From positions 25,944-89,943 of the forward strand of contig JBHHXN010000006.1 in assembly GCA_046757025.1 (NCBI GenBank): a stretch of 64,000 bases of DNA, read 5' to 3'. The notes below the pieces were generated by a model. That model worked only from the letters and a program-made list of their open reading frames with translations, had not been told where the DNA came from and did not search any database. Made by a program: the position numbers and the translations under genes. This DNA is from a bacterium. GTDB lineage: Bacteria; Zhuqueibacterota; Zhuqueibacteria; Oceanimicrobiales; Oceanimicrobiaceae. This document shows, one piece after another, positions 4,075-11,474 of the stretch (its first letter is position 1; every line of letters begins with the position of its first letter).

Positions 4075-4079
4075 GTAAA

Positions 4080-4115
4080 AAAAGCGGCTATTCAATATCA
4101 AGAACAGCCGCTTTT
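4080..4115. terminator. Probable bidirectional intrinsic terminator
   Basis: AAAAGCGGCT-A-TTC...GAA-C-AGCCGCTTTT hairpin with A and T tracts, lying between convergent genes. Confidence 0.65.
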
Positions 4116-4215: not shown

Positions 4216-4386
4216 CTATGGTGGTGGTTCCGTTGGATCGGCCAAAGATGCTGGGGGGGGTTCATTCGGATCTGCTTGAGCTGACGCCGGCGGTGGTTCG
4301 TTGGGATCCGCTTTTCCTTTTGAAAAAAGTCGAGACTTTAAACTCGACCACTTCCCCATTTTCTCTTCGGCAGTTTTTTTATCCAT
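4216..4386 (-). CDS. Unannotated 56-aa peptide with three ADP(N/T)EPPP repeats
   Basis: MDKKTAEEKMGKWSSLKSRLFSKGK-ADPNEPPPASAQ-ADPNEPPPASL-ADPTEPPP*. Strong SD AGGAGGTGA just upstream; ATG lies 19 nt after the kinase stop. Repeats differ at synonymous positions. Confidence 0.75.
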   Translation of the reverse strand: MDKKTAEEKMGKWSSLKSRLFSKGKADPNEPPPASAQADPNEPPPASLADPTEPPP

Positions 4387-4404
4387 GAAATTCACCTCCT
4401 TTCA

Positions 4405-7170
4405 TTACTTTTTAGAGTTCGCTGGCAAATTTGAAATTTTATTATTTAAAAATGCAACTTTTTGTAAATTACCATCCGCTCCGGCCCAAAAATCAAGAGC
4501 TAAGCGGTAGGTGTGAAAAGCCTCTTCCGGCGCGTTATCTTTTTCATAAGCCTCTGCTAATCCTAACAGCGCATAGACATTCTGTGGATTGAATTGCAAG
4601 GCTAATTTATACGTTTCAATGGCATTCTGAAGTTGACCAGCTTGTGAATAACCATCCGCTAATGCTTTCAAATAGAATGACCGGTTCAATGGAAACAAAT
4701 CCAGAGCCTTTTTAAAAGAGACCTCAGCTTCATCATAATCTTCTGCAAACAAGGAGACCATCCCTTGCAAATGATGCAAAAACCACCTTCCTTCCAGCTC
4801 TCCCAACGACGCGAAGGATCGCTCAAGAATGGCGATTTCGTGGAAAATTTCTTGTCGGTTGCCATTTTCCAGCAAGATTAAACCACGCAGCCAGTGCGCT
4901 TCCAGATTGTTGGGATTAGTAATGATGGCATCATCAATGGTCGTTTCCGCAACTGGCAGGTTGCCCGTTCTTAAATGCACCATGGCCAGATTGGTATAAC
5001 CCATGGATTTAAAATAATTACCGGCAGAAGTATTGACATACTTCGTTAAAACTTTTTCTGCTTGCGAGTATTTTCCCTGACCCGACAACGCCTGCGCAAG
5101 TCGAATGGGTACGTATTTAAAATCCGGCTGCAAGGCGAGAATGCGGTCACAAATAGTCACGGCTTCTTCATATTCGCCGATGAGTACCAGGATTTCCGCC
5201 ATGGAGTCGAGCGGATTGACGTCGGTGGGATTCAACTGCATTAACTTATCCATCATGGCCAGGGCTTTTTCCTTTTCACCTTTGGCCAGAAAAGCATAAC
5301 CAAGCGTGTTGTAGGCAAGCACGTAGGTCGAATCCAGCTCGATGGACTTTTGAATTTCCGAAATGCCCGCATCGATTTGACGAAATTTTCGGTATTGCGT
5401 CCAGCCATATTTATAATGCGTAGAGGCTTTAAAGGGGTTGATTTTGAGCAACCTTTTCTGATGAGATGCATACTCCTGCCAGCGATGTTCAATCCGGGCT
5501 TCATTACTTAAGTATTCCAATCTCATTTCAAGAGAAAGATTTTCAATATACGGTTTACCGCTTGATAACACTTGTTTGGCTTTGTTTCGATTCCCGATGA
5601 GGGAATATTGCCACGCCAGGTAATAATACGGTTCGATGAATGTGGAATCCAGGGAGATTGCTTTATTCAAGAGGGCAATGCTCTCCTTGTGCCGCAGATC
5701 CAGTGCAGCATCCTTGCCTTCTACGTAATAGCGAAATGCGTCCAGGGAGGAAGTGGTCAAAGACGCCACGCTGCTTTCTACCACATTTTCAGCAGCTTCA
5801 AAATTCAACACCCCGACCAATTGCGAAGTAAACTCATCGACGAGATTATAAAGCTGGCTGATATTGCTCTCCAGGGGTTTCAATGACGCAACAGACGTGC
5901 CTTTACGGCTGTCTAAAATCTCCGCCTCCACCTGAATGGTTTCGTTTTGTTTGTTGAGTTTACCGACAATGACCTTTTGGGCATTGGCTTTTTGCGCAAT
6001 TCGAATAGCTTCTTCCCGTGTGACGTTTTTGTTTTGGATGCCTAAATTCTGCATGATCTGATTCCTCTGTTCCGCGCTCAAAACGCGTATGGTGGAATCC
6101 TGGGACAAATCGGTATTCAATAAATCCATAAAAGCACCACTCAGCCACGACCAGTCTTCATCGACATTGTCCAGATAAAAAGGCATAATGGCGATAGCCG
6201 TACCCACCTCGTGCATTTTGCTTTCCGGCCTTAGTATGGCAAACAAAACGATGAGCAGAAGACCTAAAGAAAGACCGCCGAGTGTCGCAAACATTCGTTT
6301 TCGACTGAATTTTGGTTTTGGCTTGGGGGAAGTCTGCGCGGTTTTTGTTGCCCTTTCATCGAGCAACTCTTTCAATGTTAACTCAATTTCTCTGGCGTTT
6401 TGAATTCGGACCTCCAAGTCTTTTGCCAGAGCTTTGGTCACTAACTGTTGGTATTTATCAGATATCTCAGGTCGGATGCTGCAAATGGCTTCGGGTTCCT
6501 CATTGATGATGGCATAACCGATGGCCGCGCTGTATTCGCCTTGAAACGGTTGTCTGCCAGTACCGAGCTCGTACAAAACCGTACCCAGCGAAAAGATATC
6601 GCTGCGGTGATCGACTGGCAATCCCTGTAATTGCTCGGGAGACATGTAAGCCGCGGTGCCGATAACGCTTTCCTGCCGGGTGATTTGCGTCAGGTTTGCG
6701 ACCTTTGCCAAACCGAAATCGAGAATCTTGACTTGACCGTCTTTCGTTAAGATGATATTGCCCGGCTTGATATCCCTGTGAATGATGCCCTTTTGGTGCG
6801 CTTCTGCCAATCCCCGGGCAATTTGCACACCGATGGCATAAACTTTATCTATAGGGATTTCAGATTTAAGCAGAAGGCTTTGCAGCGTATCGCCAGGGTA
6901 GTAGCCCATGCTGATAAACATGTAATCGTCGGATTCGTCGATTTCATACACCATGGCAATGTTTGGATGCTCCAAAGCAGAAATGGCTTTCGCTTCTTGA
7001 ACGAATCTCTGACGAAACTCTGAGTCAGCAAGAAATTCTTTGTTTAGAAATTTCAGAGCAACCAGCCGGTCCAGTTTTAAGTCCTTTGCCTTATAAACGA
7101 CACCCATGCCGCCGCTGCCAATTTCTTCAAGTATTTTATAATGAGATAACTGTCGTCCGACCAAGTTCAT
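4405..7170 (-). CDS. Membrane-anchored Hanks-type Ser/Thr protein kinase with TolB-N-like domain and TPR repeats
   Basis: GSGGMG, VALK, HRDIKPGN, DFG and YMSPE motifs; TM helix (LGGLSLGLLLIVLFAIL); AIAIMPF segment; multiple TPR-like repeats. Confidence 0.93.
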   Translation of the reverse strand: MNLVGRQLSHYKILEEIGSGGMGVVYKAKDLKLDRLVALKFLNKEFLADSEFRQRFVQEAKAISALEHPNIAMVYEIDESDDYMFISMGYYPGDTLQSLLLKSEIPIDKVYAIGVQIARGLAEAHQKGIIHRDIKPGNIILTKDGQVKILDFGLAKVANLTQITRQESVIGTAAYMSPEQLQGLPVDHRSDIFSLGTVLYELGTGRQPFQGEYSAAIGYAIINEEPEAICSIRPEISDKYQQLVTKALAKDLEVRIQNAREIELTLKELLDERATKTAQTSPKPKPKFSRKRMFATLGGLSLGLLLIVLFAILRPESKMHEVGTAIAIMPFYLDNVDEDWSWLSGAFMDLLNTDLSQDSTIRVLSAEQRNQIMQNLGIQNKNVTREEAIRIAQKANAQKVIVGKLNKQNETIQVEAEILDSRKGTSVASLKPLESNISQLYNLVDEFTSQLVGVLNFEAAENVVESSVASLTTSSLDAFRYYVEGKDAALDLRHKESIALLNKAISLDSTFIEPYYYLAWQYSLIGNRNKAKQVLSSGKPYIENLSLEMRLEYLSNEARIEHRWQEYASHQKRLLKINPFKASTHYKYGWTQYRKFRQIDAGISEIQKSIELDSTYVLAYNTLGYAFLAKGEKEKALAMMDKLMQLNPTDVNPLDSMAEILVLIGEYEEAVTICDRILALQPDFKYVPIRLAQALSGQGKYSQAEKVLTKYVNTSAGNYFKSMGYTNLAMVHLRTGNLPVAETTIDDAIITNPNNLEAHWLRGLILLENGNRQEIFHEIAILERSFASLGELEGRWFLHHLQGMVSLFAEDYDEAEVSFKKALDLFPLNRSFYLKALADGYSQAGQLQNAIETYKLALQFNPQNVYALLGLAEAYEKDNAPEEAFHTYRLALDFWAGADGNLQKVAFLNNKISNLPANSKK

Positions 7171-7437
7171 GCGATAAATCTTGTATAAGGGTAAAAAAAA
7201 ACGCTCCCCTACATCCAGAACGCTTTAAGATTTGTAAAAGTGATTTTGAATAATAACCCAATGGCGAGTACCAGGATGCAACCTCAGTATCTATGATAAC
7301 AATAAATTTACTTGAAGTCAAGGGAAAATTGATAATTACACATGTTTATCCTTTTCCAAATTTTTTGTTAATTATTCTAAAATACTCCAAACAATCAAGG
7401 AAGTTGGCGTCATTTTGAAAAATTATTAAAAAAGAAC

Positions 7438-7482
7438 TTGACAATTACTAAATTATTAATTATGTTACTAACAAATTAGTAA
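7438..7482 (+). promoter_or_regulatory. Sigma70 promoter overlapped by a BlaI-type palindromic operator
   Basis: TTGACA (7438-7443), 17 bp, TATGTT (7461-7466). Palindrome TTACTAA-CAAA-TTAGTAA (7465-7482) and a second TTACTAA half-site at 7445-7451. AGGAGG SD before the repressor gene. Confidence 0.7.
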
Positions 7483-10028: not shown

Positions 10029-11474
10029 CTATTCCTGCAGCACCAGCTCTCCCCAGATGTACGGATTGGCTTTGGCAAACATGGAGCTGTCTGACGCCCA
10101 GTACCATTCACATTTTTTGCCGGGGTTCAGGATGATGTTGAAAAGACAGCGGGTGCCGTTTTTCATCTCTAAAAACTCCAGGGCTCCGGTGGTAATTTTC
10201 AGAAACAGGACGCGGGCATCATTTGATTTCAGCAATTGTGCCTGCACCTTTTGTGATCCTTTTTTATCTTGCGGGTAGATTTGCTGCAATTGCAACTGCC
10301 CATCGGCTGCCACGATATCCCAGATAAAAGCGCCGGGTTGGGAGGTAACTGAACGTTGGTTTTTCATACCGAACATGATGTTTGCCACTATGTGCTTTTT
10401 CTTGGCGTTTGTTGATGTTGGATTATTGGGGACAGTCAAAATGAAGCCATCAGTAAACCAGCCGATTTTTACCAGCGGCATATCGCAATCGCTTCTTTTC
10501 ACGGCAGCGAAACCGGGCTTTTTTAGCGATAATTGATTTGGAAGCGCATTCAAAGTTAACTTTTGGAGTTGTGTTTCGTTTATTTTCTTCACGCTTACCG
10601 TTGGCAGAGGTGGTAAAAATGCGCGGTGATTATCGAAATAGGACTCTGGCAGGCGATAAATTTCAGCTTGTTCGTTGGTGAAAACAATATCTGAGCCGTC
10701 GAAGCAAATGCCTTCACTCTGGCGTCCTTCAAGCAAAATTTTCTTATGAGGACCTGCCAAATAATTGTCGCTATCCTTGGGCTTTTCAAACAAGTAGATG
10801 TATTCGTAGCAAAGAATGGCGAGACGGCTGCCATTGGGGGAGACGTCAGCCGCCGTGACCATGCCATCGATTTCGAACTCACCAATTTTACTCAAAATCT
10901 GCTTTTGATTATCTACCAGTTGGTTGAATCGGTATAATTTTGTTCGATGGTTGCTGCGGTGTTTTGTGAGCAAATACAGATGGCCATTCGCCCAGAAGGC
11001 TGCTTCGCAGTCAAAATTCATATTTTGTGGATTGGGAAATTGCTTCTGATCTGGGTAGCTGAAGGGAATGCGCTTGCTCACACGGGCCACTTTGGCCTTG
11101 GACGGATCGGGTTCCTCGATCACATAAATGGCGAGGTCCTGGCGATCATTAGCGTTGTTGCCAAAATCCCCGATGATAAGGTGTCCCGAATCGTCCACTG
11201 CGATATCCTCCCAGTCGATATTTTCCGCATCCTCAATTCGAATATTGCCGATAAACTCACCGGTTTGCGTGGTAGCAAATATACGGGAATCGTTGCCGGA
11301 ATCATTGTGGGTCCAAAAGACATTTTTAAATTGCCGGCTTTTAACTAAACCAGACGATTCTTTGATTTCAGGGTTTTCGAAACGGGCAACAGGTTGCCAG
11401 GCTATATCCGTATTGGACTTGCAGGTAAGGAGAGTCGCGACAGCACAGAGCCAAAACCAGAGATTTATTTTCAT
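10029..11474 (-). CDS. Lipoprotein with N-terminal beta-propeller-like domain (ESSGL...WTHNDSG...DWEDIA family), function unknown
   Basis: Lipobox LLT-C; motifs ESSGL, WTHNDSG, DWEDIA, IGDFGNN, FDCEA, TAADVSP. Confidence 0.65.
   Translation of the reverse strand: MKINLWFWLCAVATLLTCKSNTDIAWQPVARFENPEIKESSGLVKSRQFKNVFWTHNDSGNDSRIFATTQTGEFIGNIRIEDAENIDWEDIAVDDSGHLIIGDFGNNANDRQDLAIYVIEEPDPSKAKVARVSKRIPFSYPDQKQFPNPQNMNFDCEAAFWANGHLYLLTKHRSNHRTKLYRFNQLVDNQKQILSKIGEFEIDGMVTAADVSPNGSRLAILCYEYIYLFEKPKDSDNYLAGPHKKILLEGRQSEGICFDGSDIVFTNEQAEIYRLPESYFDNHRAFLPPLPTVSVKKINETQLQKLTLNALPNQLSLKKPGFAAVKRSDCDMPLVKIGWFTDGFILTVPNNPTSTNAKKKHIVANIMFGMKNQRSVTSQPGAFIWDIVAADGQLQLQQIYPQDKKGSQKVQAQLLKSNDARVLFLKITTGALEFLEMKNGTRCLFNIILNPGKKCEWYWASDSSMFAKANPYIWGELVLQE

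Follow-up and report, generated by a model that had tools for sequence, protein, structure and literature searches.

A proline-rich small peptide gene paired with a TPR receptor Ser/Thr kinase: a candidate strain-specific ligand-receptor cassette in Zhuqueibacterota

In the agr and ComQXP systems of Bacillota, as described in the sections of PMC3673130 and PMC13220807 drawn on here, a peptide gene adjoins that of a membrane receptor kinase, and the peptide and the sensor vary while the catalytic part is kept; specifically, the hypervariable block of agr covers agrD and the 5' part of agrC, and AgrD carries an N-terminal amphipathic anchor (the latter according to the title of a reference in PMC3673130). 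Systems of the RRNPP group (Rap-Phr, PlcR-PapR, AimR-AimP), in the partial accounts used, couple the gene of a tetratricopeptide repeat (TPR) receptor to an adjacent ultrasmall open reading frame (ORF) with strain-specific codes, and their receptors are cytosolic and bind the re-imported peptide, while in the RopB clan leaderless products of 8-10 amino acids are themselves signals, the leaderless communication peptides (PMC10518010, in part). Plants employ precursors devoid of a signal sequence that are released on damage, including PROPEP1/Pep1 with its receptor PEPR and prosystemin/systemin with SYR1 (PMC6547358, in part). Lastly, bacterial Ser/Thr kinases with TPR have been described, and the relevant part of that account assigns the TPR a role in chaperone or substrate binding and names no peptide gene (PMC1262709). 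Here, we analyse a window of 64,000 nucleotides (nt) from a member of the Oceanimicrobiaceae, phylum Zhuqueibacterota (assembly GCA_046757025.1, contig JBHHXN010000006.1, positions 25,944 to 89,943), in which the gene of a receptor-type Ser/Thr kinase is directly followed by a small ORF for a proline-rich peptide.

On balance, sequence comparison leads us to regard this peptide as, more likely than not, a strain-specific ligand of the TPR domain of the neighbouring receptor kinase, and this is the best reading because ORFs led by a Shine-Dalgarno (SD) site follow 16/19 close receptor genes and because the peptide varies with the TPR part and not with the kinase. The parts of the cassette, in window coordinates, are the following.

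4405..7170, minus strand: receptor-type Ser/Thr kinase gene, single-pass, 921 amino acids, with the order kinase, transmembrane helix, TolB-N-like domain, TPR
6400..7140, minus strand: Hanks-type kinase domain, amino acids 11-257, predicted cytoplasmic (PF00069, E 4e-54)
6232..6288, minus strand: transmembrane helix by hydropathy, amino acids 295-313, preceded by a Lys/Arg-rich stretch
5806..6201, minus strand: alpha/beta domain of the TolB-N / LpoB / FlgT fold, amino acids 324-455, predicted periplasmic (model pLDDT 90)
4429..5745, minus strand: TPR superhelix of about 12 repeats, amino acids 476-914 (model pLDDT 87.5)
4392..4402, minus strand: ribosome binding site AAAGGAGGTGA, whose GGAGGT is kept in 16/19 relatives
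4216..4386, minus strand: peptide ORF of 56 amino acids without signal peptide, its ATG 18 nt past the kinase stop codon (starting at the 19th base)
4312..4359, minus strand: basic leader, amino acids 10-25, with the pattern G-x-W-x-x-[LI], a predicted membrane-associating helix
4288..4311, minus strand: core 1, ADPNEPPP
4252..4275, minus strand: core 2, ADPNEPPP
4219..4242, minus strand: core 3, ADPTEPPP, C-terminal

The peptide ORF had been picked out in an earlier note for its near-perfect SD site, which is indeed present (read from 4402 to 4392), and a small ORF with a ribosome-site match of at least nine bases follows only one of the 2448 long ORFs of the genome, namely this one; elsewhere in the genome the same ribosome site precedes a gene that we take, from its sequence, to be GroES-like. 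The three cores are encoded with different synonymous codons, as the note had stated (cores 1 and 2 differ in 6/8 codons, all silently), and the DPxEPP motif occurs five times in the six frames of the genome, three of them within the peptide ORF. The observation is thus real and not due to chance, and the ribosome site together with the codon pattern suggests that the peptide is translated. The absence of a classical hydrophobic signal peptide also holds, since the peptide has no hydrophobic stretch. Conversely, the leader that had been called basic and amphipathic is basic, and its hydrophobic moment does not exceed that of shuffled sequences (p=0.37), while shuffles are exceeded in 3/6 related leaders (p 0.002-0.033). 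The peptide matches no Pfam or NCBIfam family, a sequence search and an Atlas search each returned only the peptide itself, and Rfam has no family at the peptide region in the 6 loci searched. None of the sequencing runs listed as containing the sequence is of RNA. A single change, Leu48Phe in a spacer, was seen on one contig among the contigs of 4 DNA runs, 3 of which are possibly the source of the assembly. Translation of the peptide as a read-through fusion to the kinase was considered and rejected: although they share a frame in the window, they are separated by two stops, and the gap is a multiple of three in no more than 7/16 cases.

To establish how general the pairing is, the close receptors, comprising 15 genes from genomes and 9 metagenome loci, were examined; three loci (L042, L044, L049) duplicate genome loci and were not counted, and two could not be evaluated (L045, whose contig ends in the gene, and L047, with many N), leaving 19. 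In 16/19, GGAGGT is present and a start codon lies 3-36 nt past the receptor stop codon, and the three receptors without the ORF are L063, a second copy in this same genome, L043, and L014, whose gene is frameshifted. At L014 (G006:C256), the frameshifted receptor gene is followed by what appears to be the remnant of a toxin-antitoxin gene, presumably HigB-like. Behind distant paralogues, neither such a ribosome site nor such a small ORF was found (0/38; 45 loci less 5 that were duplicates and 2 in which no stop was visible), and we attribute to chance a TTG-started 20-amino-acid ORF with Pro-Pro-Pro and a weak site behind one of them, L073. The close clade (39-49% ectodomain identity) is present in 12/20 other genomes of the family and in 1/2 genomes of the same order, and was not found elsewhere among 167 genomes of the phylum, no more than 8 candidates having been scored in each genome. 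Searching 1.8 billion representative proteins with a profile yielded about 23 full-length 50% clusters above a clear score gap. A pattern of strong site and early Pro-Pro-Pro matched 13 times in the 167 phylum genomes; 4 matches are known loci, and inspection of each of the remaining 9 showed none to be a small ORF next to a receptor. None of 51 pattern matches in viral contigs was a relative.

The 16 peptides, of which 14 are complete (9-57 amino acids) and two are cut by contig ends, are hypervariable and hydrophilic and consist mainly of P, K, G, S, E, A and D. Pro-Pro stands in the frame of the ORF in 13/14 complete peptides (mean of shuffles 2.4, maximum 7 in 2000), with counts of 28/4/2 in frames 0/1/2, and this in-frame enrichment points to selection at the level of the peptide. 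The triple ADPxEPPP repeat that had caught attention is present in the window and is not general to the family: orthologous kinases do carry the SD-led ORF that the earlier note had proposed to look for, while repeated cores occur in 2/14 complete peptides. Therefore, the conserved unit is one Pro-Pro core, exemplified by NPPPDP, SVGPPPGG, PADPPPG, EPKDPPS (twice), SQPPPK, TTPPPK and DNPPPTGG, and the triple repeat is a local elaboration. A basic N-terminal helix is found in 6 long forms (6/14), with G-x-W-x-x-[LI] in 5 of them, and is missing from the short peptides. Ectodomain clades match peptide classes; in quick trees, the five peptides of 9-19 amino acids fall in one ectodomain clade (support 92) and three long peptides of the PS[NV] type in another (support 99).

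The receptor has the kinase-TM-TPR layout that had been claimed, with a Pkinase domain at 11-257, one hydrophobic segment and then the TPRs. The catalytic motifs GxGGMG, VALK, HRDIKPGN and DFG, that is, glycine loop, catalytic Lys, HRD and DFG, are intact and conserved, and the transmembrane segment is present in 21/21 receptors with the linker in view (23 examined; hydropathy 2.05-3.08). By the positive-inside rule, the receptor would be oriented N-in, C-out, placing the TPR part in the periplasm. TolB, LpoB and FlgT are periplasmic proteins; Foldseek placed LpoB and TolB at the top of the matches of the alpha/beta domain (E 1e-7, TM 0.63-0.69), Pfam matches to LpoB/FlgO are weak, and a search with the whole ectodomain returned generic TPR superhelices only. 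Repeats 1-7 of the TPR would form the likely peptide-binding groove. The window's genome (G000) holds about 20 kinase paralogues, and paralogues with the kinase-TM-TolB-N-like-TPR layout abound in these genomes.

The genetic behaviour of the cassette is most clearly seen in the loci L041 and L044. In these, the upstream gene and the kinase are 96-100% identical at the DNA level, identity falls to 52-72% exactly where the ectodomain begins, stays in that range up to and including the peptide, and returns to 94% about 1.3 kb further on, so that a hypervariable block spans the peptide and the sensor domain; the kinases are 99% identical in amino acids and the cores read TPPPRGGGG and KPPPPGGGGG. 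Likewise, L044 and L045 differ in 1/255 kinase codons and in 60/243 codons of TPR1-7, counted as amino-acid changes. Within TPR1-7, the groove was defined as positions 2, 5, 6, 9, 12 and 13 of each repeat, and in four close receptors variable columns make up 28/42 of the groove and 44/112 of the other exposed positions (p=0.002), and for L044 versus L008 17/42 and 21/112 (p=0.006). Similarity of the peptide cores correlates with that of the groove of TPR1-7 (r=0.31, p=0.012, n=13), and no correlation is seen with the kinase (r=0.00, p=0.44, n=10) or the TolB-like domain, in agreement with the expectation of the earlier note that the peptide should vary with the TPR part. Conserved in the groove are aromatic residues (TPR2-5) and Asn/Asp/Glu (TPR5-6), which would suit a proline-rich chain. 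Moreover, L010, whose peptide lacks Pro-Pro, is the only receptor of 18 with His in place of Trp/Tyr at TPR2 position 9, a single case. Overall, the cassette carries the genetic signature of an agr-like ligand-receptor pair, and of the ligand-receptor proposal in the earlier note the pairing and the TPR-linked variation stand; the topology differs from that of RRNPP systems, given the predicted periplasmic TPR and the missing signal sequence.

Several points weigh against the peptide being the ligand of the TPR domain. The assignment of groove-facing positions follows the general TPR consensus and not model coordinates; of the pairwise groove tests, which are not independent, 4/6 fall below 0.05 and 2/6 are not significant (p=0.053, 0.19); and across all 28 receptors conservation of the groove is barely higher than that of the convex face (0.58 vs 0.52). 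Exposed positions outside the groove correlate with the peptide at r=0.43-0.45 as compared with 0.26-0.31 for the groove, and since they correlate at least equally, physical linkage alone can explain the peptide-TPR correlation. L010 is the sole complete peptide of 14 without Pro-Pro. Furthermore, the peptide has no signal peptide, known leaderless signals are hydrophobic, unlike these (PMC10518010, in part), and G000, which is 94.8% complete, holds no Peptidase_C39 exporter (PF03412) or AgrB (PF04647), ComQ not having been searched. Finally, the kinases of the intact peptide-less receptors L063 and L043 belong to another clade in quick trees (approximately unbiased (AU) test, p=0.012), as would equally be expected of a peptide whose partner is the kinase; between a place of the L005 kinase inside and one outside the peptide-bearing kinase clade the AU test does not discriminate (p=0.42). 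A complex prediction from ectodomain alignment A1 and the 56-amino-acid peptide scored 0.17, with the mark at 0.32, and speaks neither for nor against the ligand.

If the peptide is a ligand of the TPR domain, one housekeeping-type promoter would likely make both partners and the strong ribosome site would likely make the peptide abundant. Hydrophilic and without a signal sequence, the peptide would remain cytoplasmic, and in the long forms the basic helix would keep it at the inner face of the inner membrane. Release on damage or a leaderless route is suggested because the peptide has no export signal and neither AgrB nor a C39 exporter was found; roughly half of the weight we give to the ligand goes to the preferred course, in which the peptide reaches the periplasm on leakage of the inner membrane or lysis of kin cells, and the other half to an exporter of leaderless peptides, which would yield a density signal. 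In the periplasm, the peptidase-resistant Pro-Pro core would lie in the TPR1-7 groove, its prolines held by aromatic and Asn/Asp residues, while variable groove neighbours would set strain specificity and the three cores would give avidity to the receptor of the window. Binding may alter receptor pairing and thereby the activity of the kinase, whose effect the syntenic GAF-SpoIIE phosphatase might erase. A bolder version, which we hold only tentatively and regard as rather doubtful, is that the cassette is a bacterial counterpart of plant danger-peptide signalling: an abundant cytoplasmic proline peptide without signal sequence would be a kin-specific alarm, escaping solely on rupture of the inner membrane or lysis of a clone-mate, would be read in the periplasm by the TPR receptor Ser/Thr kinase, and would be kept private by strains swapping peptide and groove, with peptide-less chimeras listening in.

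Such chimeras are L063 (G000:C53:2996-5755) and L043, in which an ectodomain of the peptide-bearing type sits on a kinase of the other clade with no peptide gene, and they could equally be listeners. The part transferred to L043 is 71-97% identical to L008 over TPR1-9 and falls to 43% by TPR12, and the loss of the peptide is explained mechanically because the transferred segment ended before the peptide gene. L043 also sits between pieces of a group II intron.

The same chimeras enter into the alternative that survives best, although we consider it unlikely: that the peptide is a cytoplasmic partner of the kinase domain, which it would inhibit from a membrane tether or serve as substrate or pseudosubstrate, and varies with the ectodomain through adjacency on the DNA only. 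No export would be required, the basic helix would put the long forms beside the kinase, every complete peptide contains Ser or Thr, and the 10-11 peptide-bearing kinases form one clade while the two peptide-less intact receptors fall in another. This division loses force with the mechanical loss at L043, and the pairing of two different peptides with a 99% identical kinase, as well as the failure of peptide similarity to track the kinase, speaks against the kinase domain as the partner. Still less probable is that the groove diversifies against a foreign ligand, such as a phage or competitor protein, the peptide then being either a hitchhiker or a plug or mimic, produced by the cell itself, that fixes the resting state. 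An arms race would also yield groove variation and cassette swapping, and chimeric receptors persist without the peptide gene; at a receptor identity of 39-47%, however, neither the in-frame Pro-Pro nor a ribosome site of 11 bases would have been retained by a mere hitchhiker, the neighbours tested include no defence genes, and no relative was found in the viral contigs.

A precursor of the class of ribosomally synthesised and post-translationally modified peptides (RiPPs), modified by an enzyme encoded elsewhere and serving as a signal or in another job, carries a similarly small probability. The leader-plus-core layout with repeated cores in 2/14 recalls such precursors, radical SAM genes follow the receptors L080-L082 (25-27% identity), two of them with a small ORF behind a strong site, and the ectodomain weakly matches TIGR04510, the cyclase of a peptide modification system (82 bits, cut-off 400). 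Yet no modifying enzyme is found among the neighbour ORFs of any close locus, so that the multicore RiPP-like alternative raised in the earlier note has no enzyme beside it there, 5/14 peptides have 9-19 amino acids and offer no leader for an enzyme to hold, and Pro is the only shared residue. Polyproline close to a stop codon stalls ribosomes, and the ORF might work through its translation: ribosomes loaded at the strong site would stall on polyproline and thereby make the kinase mRNA more stable or act as a sensor of EF-P or of proline supply, in keeping with the extreme length variation, its place as the last gene before the terminator and the hairpins that Pro/Gly codons can form in short forms, but this is equally improbable, as most loci have no downstream gene to regulate, a role of the product is indicated by the conserved G-x-W-x-x-[LI] helix of the long forms and by silent codon changes at core residues other than Pro, and joint swapping with the groove is left unexplained.

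Set beside the described systems, the proposed ligand-receptor cassette shares with agr and ComQXP the adjacency of peptide gene and membrane receptor kinase, the variable peptide and sensor with a kept catalytic part and, as in AgrD, an N-terminal anchor-like helix. In contrast to both, its receptor is a Hanks Ser/Thr kinase with a TolB-N-like and TPR ectodomain in place of a histidine kinase, its host is an uncultured diderm, its neighbours include no response regulator and no AgrB or other processing gene, and its peptide is hydrophilic, Pro-rich and without a cyclising Cys. The TPR receptor with an adjacent ultrasmall ORF and strain-specific codes recalls RRNPP; unlike there, a transmembrane helix separates kinase and TPR, the N-terminus is a PF00069 kinase instead of an HTH or three-helix effector, and the peptide lacks a secretion signal, and while the known leaderless communication peptides are hydrophobic, these are rich in Pro, Gly and charged residues. 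With PROPEP1/Pep1-PEPR and prosystemin/systemin-SYR1 (PMC6547358, in part) it shares a signal-less precursor whose active part lies at or near the C-terminus, a precursor held at the membrane in the case of PROPEP1, and a single-pass receptor kinase with an extracytoplasmic repeat ectodomain, here by predicted topology; the plant ectodomains consist of leucine-rich repeats and not TPR, no homology is claimed, no protease was identified for the cassette, and damage release, demonstrated in plants according to the parts of the source used, would be an extrapolation here. Compared with the TPR Ser/Thr kinases of the account cited above (PMC1262709, in part), the architecture is the same, and only this sub-clade carries the peptide ORF. 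Differently from RiPP precursors of the multicore, graspetide type, the close loci encode no modifying enzyme among the neighbour ORFs; a leader-like helix is seen in 6/14 peptides and a repeated core in 2/14. The cassette thus fails defining features of the known bacterial peptide-signalling families. No published account of the kinase-peptide pair was found in the full-text literature, supplements such as small-ORF catalogues lying outside that search, and we regard the cassette as conserved, undescribed so far as the literature was searched, and a probable variant of peptide-receptor signalling.

Kinase-TM-TolB-N-like-TPR receptors are numerous in these genomes and no reported ligand was found for them. 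Because a candidate ligand is encoded next door and L041 and L044 offer natural cognate and non-cognate pairs on a near-identical kinase, synthetic 9-16-mers allow a direct test of how a bacterial receptor Ser/Thr kinase recognises its ligand. Were the peptide released on damage only, it would be a kin-specific danger signal of the kind described in plants; were it exported, it would point to an undescribed route for hydrophilic leaderless peptides in diderms. The narrowness of the family limits the reach of either outcome.

Beyond the close clade lie five more distant full-length receptors (L078-L082; 25-28% identity), whose partners differ. Behind L078 come a 113-amino-acid ORF that opens with a DPPIWP motif, next a GAF-sigma-54 activator and then the small ORF in a second copy; the 113-amino-acid partner has no homologue outside its own genome (1/167 genomes). 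Two small-ORF copies that start with DPP-[IV]-WP flank the GAF-sigma-54 activator behind a related receptor at L094:8648-8989 and 10880-11122 and lack a homologue in 166 other genomes, and L079 is followed by a 97-amino-acid ORF with a GPPWP motif and a similar activator. The receptors L080-L082 are followed by radical SAM genes; radical SAM genes lie directly behind related kinase-TPR receptors at L096:8984-10389, L097:6955-8553 and L098:81-1157, two of these loci also having an ORF of 76 or 111 amino acids with a strong ribosome site, and such loci are candidate RiPP-plus-receptor clusters. A few kb behind a related receptor and GAF-sigma-54 activator, an ORF with a Trp/Pro/Cys-rich tail stands beside a radical-SAM-like gene (L095:12074-14195). 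The ectodomain family is suggested to be repeatedly coupled to small Pro-Pro or modified peptides. Distant forms of the ectodomain also occur on shorter proteins with a winged-helix N-terminus (P0018, P0019, P0082, P0101, P0111, P0142, P0143, P0171), with Trans_reg_C confirmed for P0018.

The kinase and the peptide are likely transcribed together, judging from two further features of the window.

7293..7321, minus strand: sequence resembling a sigma-70-type promoter (TTGACT-17-TATCAT), 151 nt upstream of the start of the kinase
4077..4115, no strand assigned: GC-rich hairpin with A and T runs on either side

Among the related kinases examined, 6/12 have a similar promoter site upstream, at a distance of 129-155 nt in 5 cases (mean of shuffles 0.33, maximum 5). 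The hairpin is likely a bidirectional terminator shared with a convergent cytochrome c gene, which would make the peptide the last gene of the transcript, and strong hairpins lie within 150 nt past most peptide stops in related loci. An internal peptide promoter (site 4468-4441) was considered and dropped, no counterpart being evident by eye in the upstream regions of other loci.

The kinase-peptide pair is retained in loci whose other neighbours differ. In the window and in 7/20 locus rows screened, the convergent GAF-SpoIIE phosphatase then follows, two of the 7 rows being the same gene and several contigs being short. A C1-family cysteine peptidase gene lies 3' of the peptide in the short-peptide clade (L044:7231-8373, L041:4140-6597, L101:8446-9552), with one broken and one intact copy at L041, and was not found in the window's genome at E 1e-10. 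On the other side, a divergent BlaI/BlaR1-TonB pair precedes the cassette in the window and in 4/20 locus rows screened. Lastly, a palindrome, TTACTAA-N4-TTAGTAA (7464-7481 in the window), overlaps the sigma-70-type promoter of this BlaI / BlaR1(M56)-TonB-C pair and recurs upstream of blaI-like genes in L101, L033, L036 and L035; intact in 4/5 loci and reduced to a half site in the fifth, it is likely the operator of the repressor.

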